Part shown: positions 1,147 through 18,842 of the stretch, in pieces | Numbering within the stretch: position 1 is the stretch's first letter | How the letters are laid out: each line of letters starts with the position of its first letter | UHGV virus genome: UHGV-0125022 | Direction: 5' to 3' (one strand) | Source: a virus | Length of the DNA: 18,842 bases | Program-made: the position numbers and the translations under genes | Notes under the pieces: generated by a model | Told to the model about the DNA's origin: nothing | What the model saw: only the letters and a program-made list of their open reading frames with translations | The model's database searches: none

Positions 1147-1530
1147 TTACCTCGCTGTCAGTTGTTTTGATTTCCTGTAGCCTGCCGCGTAAATGGCTAC
1201 GTTTGGAAGACATACACCAGTTTCTGGTTGCTTATGTCCAAACTCATTCGCGTACACAATGGCCGCTCGCTCCAGATTGCGTCTGTATTCTTTCTGTTGC
1301 CAGATCACGTCCTGTGCCATGAACTTAATTGGCTTAGCGTCTTCTATGCGCTCAGGCGTTTCGTGAGTACCTTTAGCCTGAATCTGCGATCTGCTTAGAG
1401 TAGGGCGGTGTAATACTTCTGAACTTATTGCTTCTTCGCGGGCCAGTACGCCGTTAGCTAATGCCTTTGCCTTTAAACGCTCACGACGACGAGAACGTGA
1501 ATTGCCTTTGAACTGAGTTCTGCGTGTCAT
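1147..1530 (-). CDS. N: Transcription antitermination protein N (P22 gp24-like)
   Basis: N-terminal arginine-rich motif (RSRRRERLKAKA). C-terminus CLPNVAIYAAGYRKSKQLTAR resembles the P22 N C-terminus as I recall it. AGGAGG Shine-Dalgarno 6 nt upstream. Sits downstream of a boxB hairpin on the same strand. Confidence 0.8.
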   Translation of the reverse strand: MTRRTQFKGNSRSRRRERLKAKALANGVLAREEAISSEVLHRPTLSRSQIQAKGTHETPERIEDAKPIKFMAQDVIWQQKEYRRNLERAAIVYANEFGHKQPETGVCLPNVAIYAAGYRKSKQLTAR

Positions 1531-2129: not shown

Positions 2130-3062
2130 TTAAAGAACCGATTTAACAAGATGGTTTTTACGGTACAGACCTATGCGATCATTGTGAATCTCAGTAGTCT
2201 CCACTAAAAGAGAAACAATCTGTCCGACCTTGTGTTTTTTTTGTATTAAATCTAGCATTTCAATCGGATAGGAAGCCTTTAAATGTTCACCACCAACATC
2301 AAGCTCCAGCTTCCCATATTTGGATAGAACGACCAGTTCGCCTGTAACCGTTTCAGTAATGGGAGGTGATGAAATGGTTGATGTAAGTCTACTCACCAAG
2401 TACTTAATTTTATTGGAGTCAATAGTTACCACCTTGGTGCCATTACTAAATGGACCGGTCCAACTTGCATCAAATGTTAAGTTGTGTTTATCGCATTCCT
2501 CTACGATTCTCTTAAGGCTTACAGTGGAATTGTATCCAATTTCAGCGACGTGATTCATGAAGTTGTTGTCGTCATCGCTTAACAACAAATCGAATATGCC
2601 TTTTACAGCCTTGCTGGGTACTGTTTCTACTAATTCTGCTATTCCTGTAGAGAAGGTGACGCCCAATTTTGTAGACCCAGGGGATAAATCAGCCAGCCTG
2701 AGGTTTAAGGAGCTTTTCACGTCGTAGGGAACTTTTTTTGAGTCCTTGCCTGAGGCAATTTTGTGTGTTGCTCTTTGTATTAGCGCTGCAAGATTTGTTG
2801 AAATAGCCCCAAGCAGCTCTAAAGGAATAGAGCCAAAGTCAACCTCAGAGCCTTTCAGCCGCAGCTCAAAAAAATCGATAAGTGGGTGCCGACTATCTTG
2901 CTTTAATTTTTCGGCCTTCAAATCGCTCAGATGAGAATCCATGGAGCGATAAAGAAGCATGTCAGCAAAGGACCTGGTTTTGTTTTGCTTCATTGCATCG
3001 ACTTCTTTTTGAATGAAATCAATGCGTTTATCGCAATTTTTAAACATTGATTTATCATTCAT
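2130..3062 (-). CDS. Hypothetical 310-aa protein, distal gene of the two-gene module downstream of cI; candidate superinfection-exclusion or defence effector
   Basis: Long ORF with GAGGA Shine-Dalgarno 8 nt upstream. Start overlaps the upstream stop as ATGA. AT-rich. No motif I can assign. Confidence 0.7.
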   Translation of the reverse strand: MNDKSMFKNCDKRIDFIQKEVDAMKQNKTRSFADMLLYRSMDSHLSDLKAEKLKQDSRHPLIDFFELRLKGSEVDFGSIPLELLGAISTNLAALIQRATHKIASGKDSKKVPYDVKSSLNLRLADLSPGSTKLGVTFSTGIAELVETVPSKAVKGIFDLLLSDDDNNFMNHVAEIGYNSTVSLKRIVEECDKHNLTFDASWTGPFSNGTKVVTIDSNKIKYLVSRLTSTISSPPITETVTGELVVLSKYGKLELDVGGEHLKASYPIEMLDLIQKKHKVGQIVSLLVETTEIHNDRIGLYRKNHLVKSVL

Positions 3063-3538
3063 AAAAAAATCCTCACTAACCCTTTCGGGTTTTCACTGCG
3101 ATCAAAACCAAACCAACCGCGCCAGTAGCTACGCCAGTACTCATAATCATAGTTAGGGTCATCTAAATTCTTCATGAGTAGTAGGACATCAATTTTGTAG
3201 TTTTGTTTGATGTAGTTTCGGTCAAGCAAATTATCGACGCGGCCCCGAAGCATGACAGGTATTGAGTTTATATTGCTATAGTCACATACCAACAAAATAT
3301 CAATATCATCAGGCTCTGGTTTAGACGTGGTGTATGAACCATCAACCCATATTTCTGTAAAACAGCCATATTGAGCAGATAATTCTCGAATAGATTCGAG
3401 TAGCTGTATAAAATTACAGTATAGCATGCCTCGCCTGGATGATGAAGGAAAGCAATCGACACAATACGATTTTAATCCAGCTTCATCCATGTCATGGAAC
3501 CCTGGCTCAAACAGGGGTGGGTAATTAATTTTATCCAT
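3059..3538 (-). CDS. Minimal nucleotidyltransferase (Pol-beta superfamily, MNT-like) fold protein, 159 aa
   Basis: WVDGSYTTSKPEPDDIDILLV matches the hG[GS]-x9-13-Dh[DE]h nucleotidyltransferase signature. A further Asp-bearing strand KIDVLLL lies downstream. AAGG Shine-Dalgarno upstream. Confidence 0.65.
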   Translation of the reverse strand: MDKINYPPLFEPGFHDMDEAGLKSYCVDCFPSSSRRGMLYCNFIQLLESIRELSAQYGCFTEIWVDGSYTTSKPEPDDIDILLVCDYSNINSIPVMLRGRVDNLLDRNYIKQNYKIDVLLLMKNLDDPNYDYEYWRSYWRGWFGFDRSENPKGLVRIFL

Positions 3539-3737: not shown

Positions 3738-4442
3738 TCACGAACTTTTCAGCCACTCCCTTGCCTCGATGTCATCCAGATGGCGAGATTGCTTCAGAAT
3801 ACCAGCCACATACTCCACCTTTGCTACTTGATGATAAGGCAACGTTATTGGCCTGTGGTCTTGGTTGATGCTTGTAAATTGGTATTCTCCATCTCTGTCA
3901 TAGCCAAGAACCTTAATCATGTTGTGTCCTTCAACGGTTCTGACAAACACCTCATCACCCGGGAATACTTTGGTGTTAGGCTCAATGAGTACATATTCTC
4001 CTGATTTTATTCTAGGCCACATGCTGTCTCCTTTCACACGAAGGCCAAAGGCATCTGGATCATCGCTATAAATTTTGAGCCACCCATCGCGCTCTTCGGT
4101 CATCTCGATGGCACCATCAACACCAAGAATTGCCTCACCAACCACGCGCACTAACCCTTTTCTTACCTGACCGACAAAAGTTAAAGAATCTGAGCATGAT
4201 GCAATTGGTGTTACATCATGTACCAAATCAAGCCACCCATTAGGTAACCCAAGTGCGGCTTCAAATTTTCTTGCTAGTTTATCCCCTATGTTTCGAGTGC
4301 TTTTTTCACCGGAGACTTGCGTGAGTTGAGAAGGGCTAACCCCAAGCTTATCGGCAAAGCTTGCATTAGTGTTACCCGCGATTTTTTTATGCTCATCTAG
4401 CAAAAACGCCAGATTCGATTTGCGAATATCTTTGTTTTCCAT
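3738..4442 (-). CDS. cI: CI-type prophage repressor (N-terminal HTH plus C-terminal S24/LexA-like autopeptidase domain)
   Basis: 234-aa protein with an HTH-like N-terminus and C-terminal S24-type domain (GDSMWPRIKSGEYVLIE, then a downstream Lys). Divergent from cro across an operator-rich intergenic region. Confidence 0.9.
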   Translation of the reverse strand: MENKDIRKSNLAFLLDEHKKIAGNTNASFADKLGVSPSQLTQVSGEKSTRNIGDKLARKFEAALGLPNGWLDLVHDVTPIASCSDSLTFVGQVRKGLVRVVGEAILGVDGAIEMTEERDGWLKIYSDDPDAFGLRVKGDSMWPRIKSGEYVLIEPNTKVFPGDEVFVRTVEGHNMIKVLGYDRDGEYQFTSINQDHRPITLPYHQVAKVEYVAGILKQSRHLDDIEAREWLKSS

Positions 4443-4927: not shown

Positions 4928-5224
4928 ATGACACAAGCAAGTTACAGCAAGCCAACACAGCGAGAAATTGATCGCGCTGAAACTGATTTACTCATCAACC
5001 TGTCAACGCTTACCCAGCGCGGTTTGGCAAAGATGATTGGCTGTCATGAATCGAAGATAAGCAGAACGGACTGGAGGTTTATTGCTTCGGTCTTGTGTGC
5101 TTTCGGAATGGCATCAGACATCAGTCCGATTAGTAGGGCTTTTAAGTATGCGCTTGATGAAATCACAAAGAAAAAATCCCCGGCCGCCACCGAGGATTTT
5201 AAGCAAATTGATATGCAATTCTGA
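4928..5224 (+). CDS. cII: CII-like transcriptional activator
   Basis: C-terminal KKKSPAATEDFKQIDMQF resembles the lambda CII C-terminus as recalled (KKRPAATERSEQIQMEF). Position between cro and O. Confidence 0.8.
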   Translation: MTQASYSKPTQREIDRAETDLLINLSTLTQRGLAKMIGCHESKISRTDWRFIASVLCAFGMASDISPISRAFKYALDEITKKKSPAATEDFKQIDMQF

Positions 5225-5256
5225 GGTAATTACTGGATCAATCCACAGGAGTCATT

Positions 5257-6102
5257 ATGACAAATACAGCAAAAATACTCAACTTCGGCAGAGGTAACTT
5301 TGCCGAACAGGAGCTAAGAGTGGCTGATATCGATGATGGTTACACCAGATTCGCTAACGAGCTGCTGGAAGCTATCGCAAGTGCCGATTTAACCGCTCGC
5401 CAGTTGAAAGTTATGCTGGCCTACGTCCGGAAAACATATGGATTCAATAAGAAAACAGATCGAATAGCCGATGAGCAAATTGCTCAGTTAACAGGACTAT
5501 CAAGGCAGAATGTTAACAAGGCTAAAAAAGAACTGATTTCAATGAATTGCCTGTTTATGGATGGAAATCAAATCGGTGTAGACAGGGAGGTATCTGCGTG
5601 GCAATTCAGCAAGTGTCTCCAAGTTAGCAACTTTGTCTCGAAGTTAGAGACAAAAAATGTCTCCAAATTAGAGACACTCAATGTCTCGAAGTTAGAGACA
5701 CACAAAAGACATTCTTTAAAGACAAAAGAAAATATTAATAAACCCCCTATATCCCCCAAAAAAATTTCTCAGAAGTTCGACCCGCTAGAAACAGAGTTGC
5801 CTGATTGGTTATCGGCAGAAACATGGTTGTCGTGGGTTACCTATCGCAAGGAGATAGGTAAGTCGATCAAGTCTAAGCAAAGCGTCACTCAGGCTATCAA
5901 CGTTCTAAGCAGAAGTCTGGAGAAGGGATATACACCTGAAGAAATTATAAACCAGAGCATCGCCAGTGGTTGGCAGGGGATTTTTGAACCCAAGACTCCA
6001 AAGGGGAAATCTCAACCGAGGCCGCAGCAGCGAGCTATGCAGGAAAACTTTGCCGCCAAAGATTACGGGCAAACTGAAATGCCTTCATGGGCGCAGGAGT
6101 GA
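5257..6102 (+). CDS. O: Replication initiator O (lambda O-like N-terminal domain)
   Basis: N-terminus MTNTAKILNFGRGNFA...DDGY matches lambda O as recalled. Internal repeat peptide VSKLET x3 is encoded by the origin iterons. Confidence 0.9.
   Translation: MTNTAKILNFGRGNFAEQELRVADIDDGYTRFANELLEAIASADLTARQLKVMLAYVRKTYGFNKKTDRIADEQIAQLTGLSRQNVNKAKKELISMNCLFMDGNQIGVDREVSAWQFSKCLQVSNFVSKLETKNVSKLETLNVSKLETHKRHSLKTKENINKPPISPKKISQKFDPLETELPDWLSAETWLSWVTYRKEIGKSIKSKQSVTQAINVLSRSLEKGYTPEEIINQSIASGWQGIFEPKTPKGKSQPRPQQRAMQENFAAKDYGQTEMPSWAQE
5614..5745. repeat. Origin of replication inside O: four about 19-bp palindromic iterons (TGTCTCnAAnTTAGAGACA; one degenerate) at 24-bp period, then an AT-rich tract
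   Basis: Iterons at 5614-5632 (degenerate), 5634-5652, 5658-5676 and 5682-5700. AT-rich ACAAAAGACATTCTTTAAAGACAAAAGAAAATATTAATAAA follows. Same architecture as lambda ori. Confidence 0.8.
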
Positions 6103-6104
6103 AT

Positions 6105-6998
6105 ATGAATACGACAAATGGTTACAATCTGGCACTGCAAAGGCAACTTGTAGACTCAAAAATCAATGACATTTCTGATCTGAAACAGAAACTTGAGTTT
6201 AGCAAAATTGGATCAGTATCAGATGGAATGTCAGTTACCAGCACAGTGGAAGAGTGCGAGAAACACGGTAAATATACTTCCTATGAGAAATATCTGACCA
6301 TCTCAGGAAAAAGAATTACTTCAAGTAAATCTGAGTGCCCACAGTGCCTTGAGGAGAAAATTCGTAAGAAAGAGATTGAACGTGAGCAGGCAGAACAAAG
6401 AGCAAGACAATCAAAAATTGAATATTTGTTGAATTCTCTCAATATTCCAGAGAGGTTCAAAAATTGCACTCTTCAGAATTATGAGCCTGTTAACGATGAT
6501 GCAAAGCGAGTTCTTAAGGTATGCCAGGCATATGCCAGTAAGTGGCCTGAACGCCTTCAAAAAGGTGGCGGACTGGTCATGTGTGGTAAGCCTGGAACTG
6601 GAAAGAACCACCTTGCACTGGCTATCGCTAGGCACGCCATTATCGAGCATCAAAGCTCTGTGATATTTACCACTGCGTTGAAAATTGCCAGAGAGTACAA
6701 ATCAACATGGTCTAAGGCCGCAACCAGAACTGAAGAAGAAGTCATTAGGCAATTTACGCATCCTGACTTGTTAATAATCGATGAGGTTGGCGTGCAGTTC
6801 GGCAGTGATGCTGAAAAGCTAATCATGTTCGAAATTATCAACACCAGATATGAATACATGAAGCCAACAATCCTGATTAGTAATCAGAGCAAAGATGAAC
6901 TTTCGGCATTCATTGGTGAGCGTGTTATTGACAGGATGAATGATGGCGGAGGGTGCACTCTTGCGTTTACATGGGATAGTTACAGGAGCAGATCGTGA
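6105..6998 (+). CDS. DnaC/IstB-type AAA+ helicase loader (functional counterpart of lambda P)
   Basis: Walker A GKPGTGKNHLA and Walker B LLIIDEVG. AGGAGTGA Shine-Dalgarno before the ATG at 6105. The ORF track extends to 6087, but 6105 is preferred. Confidence 0.85.
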   Translation: MNTTNGYNLALQRQLVDSKINDISDLKQKLEFSKIGSVSDGMSVTSTVEECEKHGKYTSYEKYLTISGKRITSSKSECPQCLEEKIRKKEIEREQAEQRARQSKIEYLLNSLNIPERFKNCTLQNYEPVNDDAKRVLKVCQAYASKWPERLQKGGGLVMCGKPGTGKNHLALAIARHAIIEHQSSVIFTTALKIAREYKSTWSKAATRTEEEVIRQFTHPDLLIIDEVGVQFGSDAEKLIMFEIINTRYEYMKPTILISNQSKDELSAFIGERVIDRMNDGGGCTLAFTWDSYRSRS

Positions 6999-10298: not shown

Positions 10299-10483
10299 AC
10301 GCCACAATTCAAACGATACCAGAGCTTCTTATCCAGACACGAGGCAATCAGACCGAAGTGGCGAGGATGCTTTCCTGCGCAAGAGGAACAGTGCTCAAGT
10401 ACAACCGAGACAGAAAAGGCGAGCGTCACGTAATAGTTAACGGCGTCCTGATGGTCAAACAGGGCAAGAGGGGTAGACCATGA
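10295..10483 (+). CDS. ninH: NinH-like protein
   Basis: TIPELLIQTRGNQTEVARMLSCARGTVLKY resembles lambda NinH as recalled. Located just before Q. Confidence 0.75.
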   Translation: MNATIQTIPELLIQTRGNQTEVARMLSCARGTVLKYNRDRKGERHVIVNGVLMVKQGKRGRP

Positions 10484-11103
10484 GACTCGAAAGCGTAGCT
10501 AAATTTCATTCGCCAAAAAGCCCGATGATGAGCGACTCACCACGGGCTACGGCTTCTGACTCTCTTTCCGGTACTGATGTGATGGCTGCTATGGGGATGG
10601 CGCAATCACAAGCCGGATTTGGAATGGCTGCGTTCTGTGGTAAGCACGAACTCAGCCAGAATGACAAACAAAAAGCCATCAACTATCTGATGCAATTTGC
10701 ACACAAGGTATCGGGGAAATACCGTGGCGTTGCAAAGCTTGAAGGAAATACTAAGGCAAAGGTACTGCAAGTGCTCGCAACATTCGCTTATGCGGATTAT
10801 TGCCGTAGTGCCGCGACGCCGGGAGCAAGGTGCAGAGATTGCCACGGTACAGGCCGTGCGGTTGATATATCAAAAACAGAGCTGTGGGGGAGAGTTGTTG
10901 AGAAAGAATGCGGAAGATGCAAAGGTGTCGGCTATTCAAGAATGCCAGCAAGCGCCGCATATCGCGCTGTGACGATGCTAATACCCAACCTTACCCAACC
11001 AACCTGGTCACGCACTGTTAAGCCGCTGTATGACGCTCTGGTGGTGCAATGCCACAAGGAAGAGTCAATCGCAGACAACATTTTGAATGCGGTCACACGT
11101 TAG
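10480..11103 (+). CDS. Q: Late-gene antiterminator Q (lambda Q type)
   Basis: 207 aa. Sequence matches lambda Q over essentially the full length as I recall it, including the zinc-binding CRDCHGTGR...CGRCKG. A lambda-like pR' follows. Confidence 0.9.
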   Translation: MRLESVAKFHSPKSPMMSDSPRATASDSLSGTDVMAAMGMAQSQAGFGMAAFCGKHELSQNDKQKAINYLMQFAHKVSGKYRGVAKLEGNTKAKVLQVLATFAYADYCRSAATPGARCRDCHGTGRAVDISKTELWGRVVEKECGRCKGVGYSRMPASAAYRAVTMLIPNLTQPTWSRTVKPLYDALVVQCHKEESIADNILNAVTR

Positions 11104-11695: not shown

Positions 11696-11944
11696 TCCCT
11701 AATTGTCTGTGGAATGACCAATTTAGCAATTTCCTTTATCTGTGGAAAGCAGGGAAACCACGCGCCGGGCGTGGATAAATATCCCGGTATTGAATCGACT
11801 GTTGGCTGCCGCTTGGCGGCCTTTTTCATTTCAGGCTCACGGGAATCATCCGCTACGTGCTTTGTTGATAAATCCATCCCGTGAAGCCTGACCCTTTTCA
11901 AACACACACACACAGCGCCATCCGAAAAATCGGAGGTGAGGCCT

Positions 11945-12268
11945 ATGAAAATGCCATACAAACAAGATTTCATCGCTGCGCTACTTGCCGCCAAGGAGCA
12001 GGGTATTGGTGCAATGCTGGCTTTTATCATGGCGTATCTGCGTGGTCGCTATAACGGCGGCGCGGTAACAAAAACGCTAATTGATGCGCTGATGTGCGCG
12101 ATGATTGCCTGGTTCGTTCGTGACCTTCTGGACTTTATCGGCCTGAGCAGCAACCTCGCCTACATAGCCAGCGTCTTTATTGGATACATCGGCACCGATT
12201 CGATCGGCAATCTTATTAAAAAACTTGCAGCAAAAAAGGCGGGAGTTGACGATGCAAACCAGTCCTGA
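11945..12268 (+). CDS. S: Class I holin S (lambda S type) with dual-start motif
   Basis: [27 protein letters not shown] resembles lambda S105/S107 as recalled. GGAGGTGA Shine-Dalgarno. ORF track begins at an in-frame GTG at 11936. Confidence 0.9.
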
Positions 12269-12701
12269 CGGAATTGCTCTGATAAAAAAATTTGAAGGTT
12301 GTCGGCTGACTGCTTACCCCGACCCCGGAACGGGAGATGCGCCGTGGACCATCGGCTATGGCTGGACCCATCCGGTTGACGGAAAGCCAGTAAAGCGCGG
12401 TATGACTATCGACCAGCAAACCGCTGACAGGCTTCTGAAAACAGGGCTTGTTGGTTATGAGAATGACGTGCTGAAAGTTGTCAGGGTGAAGCTGACACAA
12501 GGCCAGTTCGACGCACTGGTGTCGTTCGCTTACAACGTTGGGTCGCGTGCTCTTTCCACATCTACACTGCTGAAAAAGCTGAATGCTGGCGATATAAAAG
12601 GCGCGGCAGATGAATTTCTGCGCTGGAATAAATCAGGCGGAAAGGTGATGCCGGGGCTCACGAATCGCCGCAAGGCAGAGCGAGCTCTGTTCCTGTCATG
12701 A
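12252..12701 (+). CDS. R: Endolysin, GH24 phage lysozyme (P22 gp19 type; not the lambda R transglycosylase)
   Basis: C-terminal [11 protein letters not shown] and the overall sequence resemble P22 lysozyme as recalled. No SAR-like N-terminal hydrophobic segment. GGAG Shine-Dalgarno before the ATG at 12252. Confidence 0.85.
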
Positions 12702-13165
12702 TTAGCGCACTGGTTAAGCGTTACTGGCTGCAGTTGCTGGTGCTGGCGTTAATCGGCGCACTGGCTTTCTTCGTGAACCACTACCGCGACAACGCCATCA
12801 CTTACAGAGACCAGCGCGATAAGGCCACTGAGAAACTCCTCCTGGCGACCGCCACCATTAAAGACATGCAGACCCGCCAGCGTGATGTCGCTGCACTGGA
12901 TGCCAAATACACCGGAGAACTGGCTGATGCGAAAGAAACCATTGAGCGTCTGCATAGCGATGTCATTGCTGGCCGTAAGCGGCTGCAAGTCGCCGCCACC
13001 TGTGCAAAGTCAACGACCGGAGCCAGCAGCATGGGCGATGGAGAAAGCCCAAGACTTACAGCAGATGCTGAACTCAATTATTACCGTCTACGAAGTGGAA
13101 TCGACAAGATAACCGCGCAGGTTAACTACCTGCAGGAATACATCAGGACGCAATGCCTGAAATAA
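12698..13165 (+). CDS. Rz: Spanin inner-membrane subunit Rz (i-spanin)
   Basis: N-terminal TM segment then [17 protein letters not shown] and [13 protein letters not shown], close to lambda Rz as recalled. ATGA overlap with the lysozyme stop. Confidence 0.85.
12927..13112 (+). CDS. Rz1: Spanin outer-membrane lipoprotein Rz1 (o-spanin), embedded in the +1 frame of Rz
   Basis: Hand-translated 61-aa protein [25 protein letters not shown]... with lipobox LAVSGC and a Pro-rich mature part, wholly inside Rz. Confidence 0.7.
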
Positions 13166-13196
13166 TTTTTTTTGCAAATCACAAAGTCAATTTAAT

Positions 13197-13222
13197 GAGC
13201 CTCGCGATGCGGGGTTTTTTTT
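13197..13222 (+). terminator. Rho-independent terminator after the lysis cassette
   Basis: CCUCGC/GCGGGG stem (one G-U pair, short loop) followed by eight T residues. Confidence 0.5.
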
Positions 13223-13371
13223 ACATCTGAATTTCACAGCGCATCTCACGCGCATATTACATCACCCGAGCCTTTCAGAAAGTTGAGCCTGAGAACTGCC
13301 GTATATGGTGGCGACCATCTCGGGGCGGCTTTTCTGTGAGACAGGCTCACTTTCTAAAAGGTAAAGACGCT

Positions 13372-13890
13372 ATGAATAATCCGTCAGTTATTCCGGCCTT
13401 CGACTTCCGCGAAATGGTCACGACCCTCGACAACAAGATAATCACCACATCACTCAAGGTGGCGGATTACTTTGGCAAGCGACACAAAGACGTTTTGCGT
13501 GCCATACGTAACCTGAAATGCTCCGATGACTTCACCCAGCGCAATTTTGCGCCCATTGATTTCATTGATAAAAATGGCGATGTTCAGCCTATGTATAACA
13601 TCACCCGCGACGGATGCATGATGCTAGTGATGGGATTCACTGGCAAAACAGCTGCCGCAGTGAAGGAGTGTTACATCAATGCCTTCAACTGGATGGCCGA
13701 GCAGCTAAACCGGCGCATGGCGATGGGTGAAGAATTGCAGCATCGCTACGCCATCAAAGAAACGCGCTCAAAGCTGAAAGGCACGATCGGAAGCCGTTTG
13801 ATGAACGAGCGGAAGAAAGAGAAGCGCGTCCTGGAGCTCGAACATGAGCACATCATGCAGGTAACGCAGCCGGAATTACTTATTGGCTGA
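13372..13890 (+). CDS. rha: Rha-family phage regulatory protein
   Basis: N-terminal TSLKVADYFGKRHKDVLRAIRNL is the Rha-domain hallmark. ORF track 13336..13890; ATG at 13372 preferred. Confidence 0.7.
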   Translation: MNNPSVIPAFDFREMVTTLDNKIITTSLKVADYFGKRHKDVLRAIRNLKCSDDFTQRNFAPIDFIDKNGDVQPMYNITRDGCMMLVMGFTGKTAAAVKECYINAFNWMAEQLNRRMAMGEELQHRYAIKETRSKLKGTIGSRLMNERKKEKRVLELEHEHIMQVTQPELLIG

Positions 13891-13950
13891 ACGCGGCATT
13901 ACAGAAGCCCTTCATTGAGGGGCTTCGATAATGGAGCACTGGAATTATTC

Positions 13951-14571
13951 ATGAACAGACCACACCCACCAGCGCATTTTACGATGCCACCTGACCCGAA
14001 GCCGTACATCAGCATTATGCCCGCTAATGACGTTGGCGAGTGGCTGAATCAGCACATCCTGAGCGATGAGGGTGACCTCTACAACCATGACCACCAGCAT
14101 TTGCTTGAAGCGGATCTGTGCTTTCTCTGGGCATCGAACGCTTTCGAGAAGAAAGGGCGTTCCGTGCTGGGGCAGGCGGAAGAAGTGGCAATGCGGGCCG
14201 GAGGCTGGCAGAAAGCGCGGATGGAGCAGCAGATGTATGAATGGTTCGGCAGGGTGCCGCAGTTCATCATCACGCTGGCCGCCGATTACTGCTCGCAATG
14301 TTCCGATCTGGAATTCTGCGCGCTGATAGAGCACGAGCTTTATCACATCTGCCAAGCGACAGATGAATTTGGTGCGCCGAAGTTCACGCAGGAAGGGCAG
14401 CCAAAGCTGAAGCTGCGCGGCCATGACGTGGAAGAGTTTGTGGGCGTGGTTCGCCGTTACGGTGCAAGCCGGGACGTGCAGGAAATGATTGATGCGGCGA
14501 ATCAGCCAGCGGAGGTTGCTCATCTCGATATTGCCAGAGCGTGCGGGACGTGCATGTTAAAGCTGGCGTGA
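13951..14571 (+). CDS. Hypothetical protein with HExxH motif (putative zinc metallopeptidase-like)
   Basis: IEHELYHICQ contains HExxH. ORF track starts at a TTG at 13915; first ATG is 13951 with a weak Shine-Dalgarno. Confidence 0.55.
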   Translation: MNRPHPPAHFTMPPDPKPYISIMPANDVGEWLNQHILSDEGDLYNHDHQHLLEADLCFLWASNAFEKKGRSVLGQAEEVAMRAGGWQKARMEQQMYEWFGRVPQFIITLAADYCSQCSDLEFCALIEHELYHICQATDEFGAPKFTQEGQPKLKLRGHDVEEFVGVVRRYGASRDVQEMIDAANQPAEVAHLDIARACGTCMLKLA

Positions 14572-14602
14572 ATTCTAGACTGGTATGGACGGATGGTGAA
14601 AT

Positions 14603-15076
14603 ATGGCTGCTTTAAAACCGGAAGTAAAAGCCTTCATCATTCAATCGCTTGCGTGCTTTGATACTCCTTCTCAAGTTGTCGAATCCGTCAAGAAAGAGTT
14701 TGGGTTAACTATTTCTCGCCAGCAAGCCGAAGCACACGACCCAACCAAGGCTAGTAGCAAAGGTTTAGCCAAAAAGTGGATCGAGATGTTCCACGCGACG
14801 CGCAAACGGTTCCTGACCGAAACCAGCGACATTCCGATCGCGAACAAATCCTATCGCCTCCGCGTGCTTGACCGTATGGCAACCAAAACCGAGGGGATGA
14901 AAAACTTCTCCCTGACGGCGCAGCTCATTGAGCAGGCCGCGAAAGAGGTTGGCGATGCATACACCAATAAGCTGAAGGTTGAGAGCACTGGCAAGGATGG
15001 CGGCCCGATCAAGACCGAGACGACCAACCTCACCGCAGATCAGGCCGCAGAGATTTACCGCAAGATGATGGGGTGA
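14603..15076 (+). CDS. Putative terminase small subunit (DUF2280-like)
   Basis: 157-aa protein immediately upstream of, and overlapping, the large terminase. Basic N-terminal region. Assignment is mainly positional. Confidence 0.6.
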
Positions 15077-16701
15077 TCATGCCTCTTCCGTTTGAATTCG
15101 ATTTCAGAAACCCTGATTACCAGATGGTTTTTGAATGGCGGATGGAGCGCTTACAGCGCATTCGCCAGAACCCTGAAATGCTGCCAGCGCTAAAGCAGTT
15201 TTACCGCACCAACCCGGCACAGTTCATCATCGACTGGGGGATGACTACTGACCCGCGTAACATCGATTATGGCCTGCCGGTCACCATCCCTTTTCTGCTG
15301 TTCCCGAAACAGGAAGAGTGGATTCACTGGATCATGGAGCGGCGCGAACGACTGGAGAACGGCATCACCGAAAAGAGCCGCGAAATGGGGCTCAGCTGGA
15401 CGGCGATCGGGCTGGCCTGTTCGCTCTGCCTCTTCAACAAAGAAATGGTCATCGGCTTCGGCTCCCGTAAAGAGGAATACGTCGACAGCACCGGAGACCC
15501 GAAGGCGCTGTTCTGGAAGGCGCGCAAGTTCGTGGAAACGCTGCCCATCGAGTTTCGTGGTTCGTGGGACGAGAAGAAGCATGCGCCGTATATGCGCGTT
15601 GAGTTTCCCGATACTGGCGCGGTTATCAAAGGCGAGGCTGGCGACAATATCGGACGTGGTGACCGTACCACGCTCTACCTGGTGGATGAAGCTGCATTCC
15701 TCCAGCGTCCTCTGTTGATTGATGCGGCGCTGTCGCAAACCACCCGTTGCCGTATTGACCTGAGCTCGGTTAATGGCATGGCGAACCCGTTCGCGCAGAA
15801 GCGCCACGGCGGAAAAATACCAGTATTCACGTTCCACTGGCGGGATGATCCTCGCAAGGATGAAGAGTGGTATCGCAGGGAGTGCGAGAAAATCGACAAT
15901 CCGGTGGTGGTGGCGCAGGAACTTGACCTGAACTACAGCGCATCTGCGGAAGGCGTCCTGATCCCGTCCGACTGGGTACAGGCTGCCGTCGACGCGCATA
16001 TCAAACTTGGTATTCAGCCAACGGGCAAGCGACTGGGCGCGATGGACGTCGCCGACGAAGGCCGGGACAAAAACGCCTTTTCGACCCGTCACGGCTTCCT
16101 TCTGGAGAACGTGCGTGAATGGTCCGGCGTTGGCAGCGACATTTACCAGTCCGTTGAGAAGGTCTTCGGCTTTTGCGAACAGGACAACCTCGAAGAATTT
16201 CGCTTCGACGAGGACGGCCTGGGCGCTGGCGTTCGCGGCGATGCACGCGCCATCAACGAACTGCGTAACGCTGCGCGCCGACCGTCAATACTCGCCACAC
16301 CGTTTCGCGGTAGCGGCGCGGTGTTTGATCCGGACGACGAAGCGGTGCGCGGCGACAACGGACAGGCCGCCCGCCTGAATAAGGACTTCTTCGCTAACGC
16401 CAAGGCCCAGAGCTGGTGGCATTTACGCAAGCTTTTCCAGAACACCTATCGCGCCGTGGTTGAGGGCATGGCCTACAACCCGGACGAAATCATCTCAATC
16501 AGCAGCGCCATGGCGAGCAAAGACAAACTCATCATCGAGCTGTCGCAGCCGACCTACTCCATTAATGGCGTGGGGAAAATCGTTGTTGATAAACAGCCTG
16601 ATGGCACCAAGTCGCCGAACCTCGCCGACTCGGTGATGATCAGCTACGCGCCAATGAATTCAGCCCTGAACATCTGGGAGCTGCTAGGGAGACAGGCCTG
16701 A
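15073..16701 (+). CDS. Terminase large subunit
   Basis: 542 aa. ATPase-like segment then LYLVDEAAF (Walker B-like). Size and position before the portal. Start is GTG 15073 or ATG 15079. Confidence 0.85.
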
Positions 16702-18170
16702 TGGCACGAAACAAGCAATCCTCTCAGCGAACGGCACAGCCCACCGCTGACGGCTACGAGAACTTCGTCGCCCGCGTTGGGATGCAGACGCCTAACCAGC
16801 ATTCAGCATCGACCTACCGGGCGAACTCCACCAGCCGCAACCGCATGCTGGTGGAATGGTCATATCGCGGTTCGTGGGTTATCGGTGAAGCGGTCGACGC
16901 TATCCCGGACGATATGACCCGAAAGGGCATTCGCATCACTTCGGAGATTGACGCCAAAGACCGTGGCACCCTCGAAGCGCAACTGGATGAGTTGCAGATC
17001 TGGGATGCGCTGAACGACGTGCTGAAATGGTCGCGCCTCTACGGCGGCGCGGTCGGCTTCATCATGATCGAGGGGCAAGCACCAATGACCCCGCTGCGAC
17101 TCGAAACCATTGGCGAGGGCAAGTTTAAGGGCATTCTCCCGCTCGACCGCTGGATGATTAACCCGGTGCTGACACGCCGCATTAAAGAGATGGGGCCGGA
17201 CCTCGGCAAGCCTGAGTTTTACGACGTGGTGACCACCGCAACGGGCATTCCGGCCTGGCGCATCCATCACAGCCGCCTGATCCGCTTTGATGGCGTCACG
17301 CTGCCATTCCAGCAGAAGATGACCGAAAACGAATGGGGAATGTCGGTTGTAGAGCGTATCTGGGATCGGCTTACTGCGTTCGATAGCGCTACTGTCGGCG
17401 CGGCGCAGCTGGTCTATAAAGCGCATCTGCGTACCTATAGCGTGGAGAAGTTGCGCGAGCTTATCGCGCTTGGAGGCCCGGCGTTCGAAGCGTTGCTGAA
17501 GAACATCGACCTGATCCGCCAGTTCCAGAGCAATGAAGGTATGACGCTCATGGACTCGCGGGATAAGTTCGAAACCCACCAGTACAGCTTTAGTGGTCTG
17601 GATGACATTCTTTCGCAGTTTGCTGAGCAGATCAGCGGTGCCGTTGGTATCCCGCTGGTACGCCTGTTCGGTCAATCCCCGAAAGGCTTCTCTACTGGTG
17701 ATGCAGACCTCGCCAACTATTACGACCGGGTGAGCTCATTGCAGGAGCGCCGCTTACGGCTGCCGATGCGCCGGATACTGGACATTATGCACCGCTCGGA
17801 ACTCGGAAAGCCGCTGCCGGAAGATTTCACGTTTGAGTTTAACCCGCTATGGCAAATGTCAGACGTTGACCGATCAACGGTGGCCGTAAACACCACCAAC
17901 GCGATCAGTACCGCGCTGGGCGACGGATTGATGACGCGTAAGGCGGCGATGACCGACCTGCGCGAAAACTCTGACGTCACCGGCATCGGGGCATCCATTA
18001 CCGACGAGGATATCGAGAATGCCGAAGACGAAGCGCCGCCAGGCATCGGCGAACTTGGCGACAAACCGCCAGAGTCGCCAGGCGGAGATCCGATATCGAA
18101 CGAGCCTACGGCAGATAGCGCGGGCGGTCGGGGATATCGTAAATGGGCGCTACGATGGTTCAAACGATAG
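16701..18170 (+). CDS. Portal protein
   Basis: 489-aa protein directly after terL (ATGA overlap), with an acidic C-terminal tail. Position and size typical of portal. Confidence 0.8.
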   Translation: MARNKQSSQRTAQPTADGYENFVARVGMQTPNQHSASTYRANSTSRNRMLVEWSYRGSWVIGEAVDAIPDDMTRKGIRITSEIDAKDRGTLEAQLDELQIWDALNDVLKWSRLYGGAVGFIMIEGQAPMTPLRLETIGEGKFKGILPLDRWMINPVLTRRIKEMGPDLGKPEFYDVVTTATGIPAWRIHHSRLIRFDGVTLPFQQKMTENEWGMSVVERIWDRLTAFDSATVGAAQLVYKAHLRTYSVEKLRELIALGGPAFEALLKNIDLIRQFQSNEGMTLMDSRDKFETHQYSFSGLDDILSQFAEQISGAVGIPLVRLFGQSPKGFSTGDADLANYYDRVSSLQERRLRLPMRRILDIMHRSELGKPLPEDFTFEFNPLWQMSDVDRSTVAVNTTNAISTALGDGLMTRKAAMTDLRENSDVTGIGASITDEDIENAEDEAPPGIGELGDKPPESPGGDPISNEPTADSAGGRGYRKWALRWFKR

Positions 18171-18183
18171 CGTCACCGAAATA

Positions 18184-18792
18184 ATGGATGCGCTGGAGCG
18201 CTACAGCGAAATCATCACCCCCTGGGCGACGAAGGTTGCTGAGAACTTCACCGCAGACATAGCGCGCCAGAATGAAAAGCAGTGGCGTCAGCACAGCCGG
18301 AACATCAGCGCAGAGCTGCGCAACATGGTTGACCGCGCCCCGGTAGGCCAGGTGATGAAATCCATCGTCGCCGAGCAAATTAAGTACATCAAATCTCTGC
18401 CTCTTGAGGCCGCCGATCGGGTGTATGACATTCAGAACAAGGCCATCGAGGCTGTAGTAACTGGTGGCCGCGCTGAGCCATTCGCGAAAGAGATAGCTGC
18501 TTCCGGTGACGTGTCACGCTCACGAGCGAACCTTATCGCCCGGACTGAGCTTGGGCGCGCAACCGGCGCGCTGGATCAGGCGCGTGCGCTGTCAATCGGC
18601 TCGAATGGTTATATCTGGCGTACAGCCGAAGATGGCGACGTCCGGCATTCTCATCGAGAGATGGAAGGGAAGTTTGTCGAATGGGGCCGACCTCCAACGC
18701 TTGACGGCATGACCGGTCACGCTGGCGAGCTCCCGAACTGCCGCTGTTACAAAGAAATCGTCTTCCCCAACCCTCATTCTTATCTCGCCTGA
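18184..18792 (+). CDS. Head morphogenesis protein (Mu gpF / SPP1 gp7 family)
   Basis: C-terminal motifs IARTELGRA ... HSHREMEG ... LPNCRC are typical of the Mu F family. First ATG after the portal stop is 18184; the ORF track extends in frame back to 18019. Confidence 0.7.
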   Translation: MDALERYSEIITPWATKVAENFTADIARQNEKQWRQHSRNISAELRNMVDRAPVGQVMKSIVAEQIKYIKSLPLEAADRVYDIQNKAIEAVVTGGRAEPFAKEIAASGDVSRSRANLIARTELGRATGALDQARALSIGSNGYIWRTAEDGDVRHSHREMEGKFVEWGRPPTLDGMTGHAGELPNCRCYKEIVFPNPHSYLA

Positions 18793-18806
18793 ATCGCAGG
18801 TAAACC

Positions 18807-18842
18807 ATGAAATATTTTTTCAATACCCGGCTGGGGGAAACC
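18807..18842 (+). CDS. Start of a further head-region ORF (MKYFFNTRLGET...), truncated by the window end
   Basis: ATG at 18807 with an AGG-rich stretch upstream. Only 12 codons visible. Confidence 0.3.
   Translation, partial: MKYFFNTRLGET

Follow-up and report, generated by a model that had tools for sequence, protein, structure and literature searches.

A probable in-gene replication origin of a separate iteron specificity class in the O gene of an mEpX1-like lambdoid prophage

The virus genome UHGV-0125022, analysed here as one stretch of 18,842 nucleotides (the window), carries an O-family replication initiator gene that begins like gene O of lambda and yet contains palindromic repeats unlike those of lambda, which raises the question of how origin specificity is set at this locus. 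Our analysis suggests, with a probability of about 0.85, that an mEpX1-like lambdoid prophage has its replication origin at positions 5614-5742 and that the site would be recognised by the prophage's own O protein through its N-terminal domain. Judged from the sequence data, the apparent specificity puzzle dissolves, and the locus is best read as an ordinary lambda-style in-gene origin that belongs to another specificity class. The basis of this model is the anatomy of the site, its positional homology to ori-lambda, the constraint on the iteron arms, the covariation between a predicted helix of O and the iterons, and the shuffling of modules among related phages.

The gene lies in a canonical lambdoid early-right operon (Table 1). 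Its product matches Pfam Phage_rep_O (PF04492) over residues 21-115 (E 8e-35, 119.7 bits) and TIGR01610 phage_O_Nterm with 107 bits against a cut-off of 45.5, and at the DNA level the gene is 99.1% identical to gene O of phage mEpX1, with N7 and CurroJimenez_Bas106 also close. The C-terminal domain of O matched no Pfam family, even at E <= 10, and showed no similarity to lambda O past residue 115; likewise, tblastn searches of the window with the lambda O C-domain and with lambda P gave no match. The gene that follows O matches Pfam IstB_IS21 (E 1e-18), PHROG 50 'DnaC-like helicase loader' (E 9e-86) and the NCBIfam DnaC model, the last with an E-value of 3e-48 that lies under the curated cut-off of that model. 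An initiator-loader pairing of the lambda O-P type is absent here, the downstream partner being DnaC-like.

Table 1. Positions of the putative origin, the initiator gene and the surrounding early-region features in the window
Feature	Position	Strand	Remarks
cI-like repressor	3738-4442	minus	234 aa
cro-position ORF			between cI-like repressor and cII; early-right operon
cII	4928-5224		early-right operon, before O
oop-like antisense unit	promoter 5282..5254, terminator 5200..5173	minus	at the conserved 5' end of O
O-family replication initiator gene	5257..6102	+	281 aa; contains the putative origin; Phage_rep_O and TIGR01610 matches
Predicted winged helix-turn-helix core	5395..5580	+	codons 47-108; AlphaFold2
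Codons 82-88 (S-R-Q-N-V-N-K)	5500..5520	+	N-cap and first turns of the predicted recognition helix; candidate specificity determinant
Iteron 1 (ITN1)	5614..5632	.	TGTCTCCAAGTTAGCAACT; left arm intact and conserved, right arm degenerate (GCAAC)
Iteron 2 (ITN2)	5634..5652	.	TGTCTCGAAGTTAGAGACA; perfect 6+6 dyad arms
Iteron 3 (ITN3)	5658..5676	.	TGTCTCCAAATTAGAGACA
Iteron 4 (ITN4)	5682..5700	.	TGTCTCGAAGTTAGAGACA; adjoins the AT-rich tract
AT-rich, A-skewed tract	5701..5742	.	42 bp; presumed DNA unwinding element and module junction
CCCCCTATATCCCCC motif, right flank	5743..5757	.	CCCCC-N5-CCCCC, encodes PPISP; read directly
DnaC/IstB-like AAA+ helicase loader gene	6087..6998	+	overlaps the end of O; presumed partner of the O C-terminal domain
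Ren-like gene, then NinB			downstream of the loader gene
Q	10480-11103		downstream of the Ren-like gene and NinB

Between 5614 and 5700 we find four iterons of the type TGTCTC-N7-GAGACA, three of them perfect and one degenerate, with start-to-start distances of 20, 24 and 24 bp; the initial annotation had placed and counted these copies correctly, but its uniform 24-bp spacing does not extend to the first interval. Tandem Repeats Finder reports the array as 3.0 copies of period 24 (score 109). The exact pattern occurs three times in the window, all within 67 bp, against no occurrence in 200 dinucleotide-preserving shuffles, and repeat searches of the whole window found no second iteron cluster. 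Half-degenerate sites of the ITN1 type are also kept in related origins. As had been proposed, the iterons lie inside O and encode its VSKLET linker: they run in frame through codons 120-148, just beyond the end of the Pfam domain at residue 115, and yield an exact 8-residue peptide repeat (...NFVSKLETKNVSKLETLNVSKLETHKRH...; NFVSKLETKNVSKLETLNVSKLET). As in lambda, the putative origin thereby falls into the linker that joins the N-terminal DNA-binding domain of the initiator to its C-terminal domain, and the earlier proposal of an in-gene replication origin holds on this comparative evidence, since both position and architecture match ori-lambda. No Rfam family matched the window at gathering thresholds.

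The iterons are followed by an AT-rich tract with a GC content of 0.20 in the 40-bp window 5700-5739 and an AT skew of +0.44. Its start, (A)CACAAAAGACA, is common to the lambda, P22 and HK97 origins, while Pm34 has ACACAAAAGAAA; a tract beginning with ACACAAAAGA was seen in all O classes read other than phi80 (ACACCCAATACA), the Gifsy-2 excerpt ending before the tract. The phase of iteron 4 relative to ACACAAAAGA was fixed in 16/16 relatives selected by their protein sequence. On the right flank, the CCCCCTATATCCCCC motif is common to origins whose O protein has a C-domain that is not of the P type, whereas lambda-type C-domains carry a GAGAATTCTGGCGAATCCTCTGAC repeat there.

How lambda-like is this locus? 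The annotated lambda iterons are of the ATCCCTCAAAACGAGGGA type, spaced 20/24/23 bp and followed by ACACAAAAGACACTATTACAAAAGAAAAAAGAAAAG, so that the TCCCTC...GAGGGA arms given for lambda in the initial annotation were correct, and the GTCTC/GAGAC palindromes are, as claimed there, unlike those of lambda. In blastn comparisons, DNA similarity to lambda was limited to 5163-5450 (78%) and to the AT-rich tract at 5700-5737, whose close resemblance to its lambda counterpart is borne out by 82.5% identity over 40 columns (E 1e-5); the intervening 5450-5700, which encodes the helix-turn-helix region and contains the iterons, showed no detectable DNA similarity to lambda. Over residues 1-115 the two O proteins are 57% identical, and this identity is strongly uneven: it amounts to 84% over residues 1-31, 65% over 32-62 and 47% over 63-79, drops to one of seven positions at 82-88 (SRQNVNK, as compared with PVKRCNE in lambda) and is 26% over 97-115, with 38% for residues 63-115 taken together. 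Over its first 93 nt, the O gene is 93.6% identical to a 933W-type O, and the segment leading from cII to the start of O is 96.9% identical to HK97 as far as 5264. In lambda, the oop promoter pO overlaps the start of the O coding sequence (PMC6022878), and the oop-like unit of the window occupies the same conserved 5' end. Together, the uneven identity and the oop overlap suggest that the 'lambda-like N-terminus' is a mosaic 5' segment and not a lambda-like DNA-reading surface. The description of O as lambda-like at its N-terminus is therefore apt for residues 1-31 and for the domain family, but not for the DNA-reading heptad, and the paradox it implied falls away: near-identity ends at residue 31, and the heptad at 82-88 differs at six of seven positions. 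Put differently, the repeats would be unlike those of lambda because the predicted DNA-reading helix of O differs along with them, and no puzzle of specificity is left. That O proteins vary together with origin-binding specificity belongs to the established modular picture of these phages (PMC8022706). By its helix, GLSRQNVNKAKKEL, the locus stands apart from the lambda specificity class (lambda, 933W, 21 and ev017), in which TCCCTC...GAGGGA iterons go with an O protein reading ...KLPVKRCNEAKLEL...; it combines GTCTC-N7-GAGAC iterons in 24-bp phase, ending at ACACAAAAGA, with the heptad SRQNVN[KR] in O, the combination that characterises what we call the GTCTC class.

Constraint on the iterons was assessed in 16 GTCTC-class origins that were selected by protein sequence, with N-domain identities down to 59%, and placed in a gap-free alignment anchored on the ACACAAAAGA junction. 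Nine of the arm positions were kept in 46-47 of the 48 iterons and the opening base of the right arm in 44, while the iteron spacers and the inter-iteron bases drift. Two synonymous sites within the arms, the fourfold-degenerate third position of GTC (Val) and the twofold-degenerate one of GAG (Glu), were fixed in 47/48 iterons, as compared with an information content of 0.15-0.7 at the other third positions, and the residues encoded by the middle of the iteron vary (K/N/R/S/G and L/P/V). In a larger collection, with 186 iterons in 62 distinct blocks, the same Val and Glu synonymous sites were kept in 185/186, a figure that is partly circular because many of these loci had been selected for exact arms. 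Since synonymous sites within the arms are frozen, this pattern points to selection acting on the DNA of the iteron arms; arms fixed at synonymous sites around variable middle residues also argue against a repeat maintained purely at the protein level.

AlphaFold2, run on O with a 65-sequence alignment, predicts helices at residues 47-60, 72-79 and 83-95, followed by a beta hairpin with strands at 99-102 and 105-108. The diversity of the O alignment came from a profile-based second search, the first having returned, among the matches listed, E. coli proteins that were 88-100% identical. Block pLDDT values were 79-91 over residues 31-110, with the exception of 61-70 (69), and reached approximately 88-91 over 71-100; confidence in the model as a whole was moderate (mean pLDDT 65.5, pTM 0.50). 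The folded core extends to about residue 110, and the iteron-encoded linker (residues 120-170) had pLDDT values below 50 and is predicted to be disordered. In a Foldseek search of the PDB, the best matches of the model were winged helices of the CRP/FNR and MarR types with E-values of about 2e-3, none reaching 1e-3, and a weak phmmer alignment placed LSRQNVNKA of O on recognition helix F of M. tuberculosis CRP. Sequence and profile searches of the PDB found no solved O-protein structure and only weak winged-helix matches (E 0.04-0.4). Because the structural and sequence matches are weak and no solved O structure was found, we regard a winged helix-turn-helix fold for the N-domain as a reasonable but not a strong prediction.

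Each O class that we read carries palindromic iterons of its own at the corresponding place and its own heptad at alignment positions 82-88. SRQNVNK goes with GTCTC/GAGAC (the window, mEpX1, Pocitis76, Pm34 and many IMG/VR contigs), PRQKVNK with GTCAC/GTGAC (L071, SEN22), SRSKANI with TGT(A/T)TCC/GGAACA (Omnitron), PVKRCNE with TCCCTC (lambda), SDTHVSD with TTCCCG (phi80), KVKHVSE with ATCCCCG (Gifsy-2), (A/L)P(T/H)KCS(T/A) with TTACC (P22, Turner, GZ7) and HHTHVC(A/K) with TTAGC (HK97, RCIP0114, PSTCR7lys), a one-to-one relation over eight iteron classes. When 19 sequences were aligned, the mutual information between alignment column and iteron class was highest at residues 82-88, which are invariant within classes, and N85 is the sole column diagnostic for the GTCTC class. 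As an independent test of this covariation, viral contigs were picked on DNA alone, by two phased iterons each. All 119 of the 119 contigs with two phased GTCTC-N7-GAGAC sites were O-type origins, and wherever the upstream ORF was readable (113/113) it encoded SRQNVN[KR]. Pairs of GTCAC-N7-GTGAC sites marked O-type origins in 111/120 contigs, and 110/110 readable heptads were PRQKVN[KA], the heptad of one further O-type contig (L292) being cut off by the end of the locus. The other nine GTCAC-pattern contigs were rejected as origins, their repeats being chance matches in unrelated coding repeats of the G-x-V-T-G type. Among these DNA-selected contigs there was no cross-over between GTCTC or GTCAC iterons and the two heptads.

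GTCTC and GTCAC iterons have a common geometry and are told apart by one symmetric arm base, and the heptads of the two classes differ consistently only in S82/N85 as compared with P82/K85. The most interesting point left over from this comparison is a candidate two-residue, one-base-pair specificity switch between the two classes. Going by the covariation, residues 82-88 of O are probably the main specificity determinant. Since only about 100 bp separate the helix codons from the iterons and the two are passed on together, covariation by itself is no proof of direct contact and may in part stem from the common descent of one linked module. A broader idea, that residues 82-88 in helix 3 of O-family initiators make up a compact and readable recognition code, is one that we put forward tentatively and hold to be somewhat doubtful; if it were true, origin specificity would be switched by N85K, with or without S82P, when combined with the matching T-to-A change in the arms, orthogonal origin-initiator pairs could be designed, and the rise of new incompatibility or replication classes in lambdoid phages would be accounted for.

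The GTCTC N-module occurs with three combinations of C-domain and partner: the window-type C-domain with a DnaC-like loader (the window, mEpX1, Pocitis76 and contigs L012, L015, L017, L025 and L026), a lambda-type C-domain with a P-like protein (Pm34, L019 and L023) and a P22-type C-domain with a DnaB-like helicase (L028). The window-type C-domain and its DnaC-like loader are also found with TTACC iterons in GZ7 and with ATCCCCG iterons in Gifsy-2. These combinations show that N-domain and iterons travel as one recombination module and C-domain and loader as a second, and that the conserved AT-rich tract starting with ACACAAAAGA is the junction between them. Hybrid phages studied by Furth and Yates in 1978 reportedly assigned origin specificity to the N-terminal part of O and P specificity to its C-terminal part; the shuffling seen here agrees with this classical result. 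Iteron number varies as well: near-identical O proteins of 281, 289, 297 and 313 aa, found among the listed E. coli matches of 88-100% identity, differ only in having 3, 4, 5 and 7 VSKLET units. Among distinct GTCTC origins, the usual number of phased full iterons is three, with four in a few cases. There is a parallel in lambda, with four iterons, and the Stx phages, with six, the extra iterons of the latter being important for replication (PMC7466680).

Could the puzzle nevertheless be real, with an N-domain that is functionally lambda-like and a specificity that comes from the linker, the C-domain, a host factor or a relaxed or dual specificity? Shared domain family and the 84% identity of residues 1-31 speak for such a reading, which we consider extremely unlikely given the single match at residues 82-88, the 38% identity over 63-115 and the end of DNA similarity to lambda at 5450, ahead of the helix-turn-helix coding region; moreover, the conserved 5' end of O coincides with the position of the oop promoter (PMC6022878). 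The C-domain is excluded as the source of specificity, because one and the same N-domain/iteron pair is found alongside three C-domains and partners that are unrelated to each other. Least probable of all in our estimate is that the repeats are nothing but a protein-level VSKLET linker without a role as DNA sites. In-frame repeats do give an exact peptide repeat, and the number of units is not constant among near-identical O proteins, a variation that a flexible linker tolerates, but every unit is also a DNA palindrome, for which a peptide repeat has no need. The frozen synonymous arm positions (47/48) beside variable middle residues, the predicted disorder of the linker and an arm sequence that tracks the recognition helix rather than the linker all count against it.

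We further considered that the palindromes might chiefly serve pausing or termination within O, another regulator, or incompatibility and exclusion, the true origin lying elsewhere. A terminator-like hairpin with a T-run was indeed called on the minus strand at 5679..5655, and ectopic iterons are known to titrate O in lambda (PMC4488673). We rejected the hairpin as a terminator, because a palindrome beside an A-run produces such a call trivially. The exact homology in position and phase to ori-lambda and to the annotated P22 rep_origin, together with the lack of a second iteron cluster in the window, makes this explanation very improbable.

Under the preferred reading of 5614-5742 as an origin read by its own O protein, dimers of O would bind the dyad GTCTC-N7-GAGAC iterons through the N-terminal winged helix-turn-helix, and the resulting multi-O complex would destabilise and open the adjacent AT-rich tract; both steps are modelled on lambda by homology. 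The C-terminal domain of O would then recruit the DnaC-like loader carrying host DnaB, in place of lambda P. What would determine specificity is the beginning of the recognition helix, its first turns (SRQNVNK at 82-88, PVKRCNE in lambda), with residue-base contacts that we infer from the comparison. O binding, unwinding, loader recruitment and initiation at this site are thus proposed by analogy with the O-iteron-DnaB steps described for lambda (PMC6022878, PMC7466680).

The 201-bp origin segment is present in 47/5426 complete E. coli genomes (about 1%), always on the chromosome and annotated just as 'replication protein', and 372 contigs are on record with an O protein (P0003) that is 100% identical to that of the window. 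For mEpX1, the stretch 25950-38795 of the record has O and the DnaC-like gene annotated but no origin or iterons. We found no earlier description of GTCTC iterons in the literature searched, which is weak evidence, since coverage was thin for subscription journals and for the origin papers of 1978-79. We therefore describe a new, unannotated specificity class of a well-known element, already contained in the sequenced phages mEpX1, N7 and Pocitis76 and present in many Enterobacterales phage contigs, that adds to the lambda paradigm and leaves the accepted mechanism unchanged. The sequence data show how specificity is partitioned between an N-domain/iteron module and a C-domain/loader module. 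The uses are modest: prophage origins can be annotated, the compatibility of replication modules in co-resident prophages may be predicted, and a residue pair is offered for specificity switching.

Among known systems, the locus shares with ori-lambda its place inside the gene, four dyad iterons of about 19 bp (20/24/24 bp here, 20/24/23-24 bp in lambda), the Phage_rep_O N-domain and, after the iterons, an AT-rich tract that begins with ACACAAAAGACA. It differs from ori-lambda in its arms (GTCTC/GAGAC instead of TCCCTC/GAGGGA), in its heptad (SRQNVNK instead of PVKRCNE), in an unrelated C-domain whose partner is a DnaC-like AAA+ loader instead of P, and in the absence of the right-flank GAGAATTCTGGCGAATCCTCTGAC repeat. 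In the Stx phages 933W and P27 (six iterons), iteron number likewise varies within one specificity class (PMC7466680), but this is the lambda class and not GTCTC. The closest relative is mEpX1 (JQ182727 31950-32795), with a 99.1% identical O, identical iterons and AT-rich tract and a DnaC-like neighbour; N7 and CurroJimenez_Bas106 can be named with it as essentially the same element. The difference from mEpX1 lies in the flanking immunity genes, and mEpX1 covers only 40% of the whole window. The Proteus phage Pm34 and the Hafnia phage Pocitis76 belong to the same specificity class, with GTCTC/GAGAC arms, a SRQNVNKAKKEL helix and an array of three phased iterons that ends at ACACAAAAGA; unlike the window, however, Pm34 joins a lambda-type C-domain and a P-like partner to the GTCTC N-module, and has an inverted half-site as its fourth, upstream site in place of a degenerate iteron at 20-bp spacing. 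Gene 18 of P22, O of HK97 and gene 15 of phi80 also contain class-specific palindromic iterons inside the initiator gene, and P22 and HK97 share the CCCCC...CCCCC right flank, but their arms are TTACC, TTAGC and TTCCCG, respectively, their heptads are others, and the partner is a DnaB-like helicase in P22 and HK97 and a P-like protein in phi80. In iteron plasmids (RepA, RepE, pi), a winged-helix initiator acts on phased iterons beside an AT-rich unwinding element, and the iterons are direct repeats bound by monomers. The initiator logic predicted here, with phased iterons next to an AT-rich element, resembles that of these plasmids, whereas the iterons of the window are dyads that are presumably bound by dimers, and the predicted fold of O matches winged helices of the CRP/MarR type.

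Alongside the window's GTCTC/SRQNVN[KR] specificity class there are origins in which TGTCAC-N7-GTGACA iterons are paired with an O protein carrying the heptad PRQKVN[KA], as found in the viral-contig loci L071, L092 (SEN22) and L215-L334. These origins form a sister specificity class: compared with the window class, a single symmetric arm base differs in the iterons, and the heptads differ consistently at two residues (S82P and N85K). Nine viral-contig loci (L222, L230, L232, L255, L256, L264, L311, L319 and L320) were rejected as origins, as their GTCAC-N7-GTGAC pairs are chance matches lying in unrelated coding repeats of the G-x-V-T-G type.

O genes that are nearly identical to one another vary in how many iterons they hold, with 3, 4, 5 or 7 full 24-bp units, and O protein length follows accordingly (281, 289, 297 or 313 aa, respectively); the copy-number variants comprise the O proteins P0042, P0106 and P0001 and the loci L015, L102, L121 and L144. 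In IMGVR_UViG_2751185775_000002 (L024/L110), a one-base indel within the first iteron cuts O to 127 aa, which points to a prophage origin that is defective or else to a mistake in the assembly.

A CCCCC-N5-CCCCC motif, often followed by GGGGG, adjoins the AT-rich tract of the window and recurs at equivalent sites in six loci (L006, L007, L071, L089, L091 and L093). The motif is common to origins whose O has a non-P-type C-domain, whereas lambda-type modules have a GAGAATTCTGGCGAATCCTCTGAC repeat in its place. It could represent a second origin element, or merely a conserved PPxxP coding motif. The usual pairing of C-domain and partner is apparently broken in IMGVR_UViG_2757320934_000001 (L020), where a GTCTC-class O with a C-domain 40% like the window's DnaC-partner type is adjoined by a lambda-P-like gene (40%).

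Features flanking the origin in the window
Feature	Position	Strand	Context
N	1147-1530	-	one border of the ORF pair's interval
Overlapping larger/smaller ORF pair	2130-3062 and 3059-3538	-	between N and cI
oop-like antisense unit	5173-5282	-	promoter-like site and terminator
Promoter-like site	5282..5254	-	overlaps first codons of O
GC-rich terminator	5200..5173	-	within end of cII
CCCCC-N5-CCCCC motif	5743-5757		directly right of AT-rich tract

To the left of the iterons, the promoter-like site of the oop-like unit reads TTGAGT-17-CATAAT with a TG, and it is because this antisense unit overlaps the start of O that the 5' end of the gene is highly conserved at the DNA level (PMC6022878). No Rfam family matched the unit at the gathering score. 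Further left, the ORF pair occupies a rexAB-like moron slot and its members match, in the order tabulated, PDC-M63B (E 7e-45) and PDC-M63A (E 1e-40), a PADLOC candidate defence pair; the smaller ORF corresponds to Pfam DUF6932. Phage mEpX1, whose O gene is 99.1% identical, carries the same ORF pair, labelled as hypothetical proteins.

On the right-hand side, 7 kb of the window (11902-18842), including the portal gene, are 96.9% identical to Citrobacter phage Omnitron. In Omnitron itself, O and the origin fall into another class again, with arms TGT(A/T)TCC...GGAACA and the heptad SRSKANI. The window, with its Omnitron-like right arm and different origin class, illustrates cross-genus mosaicism.
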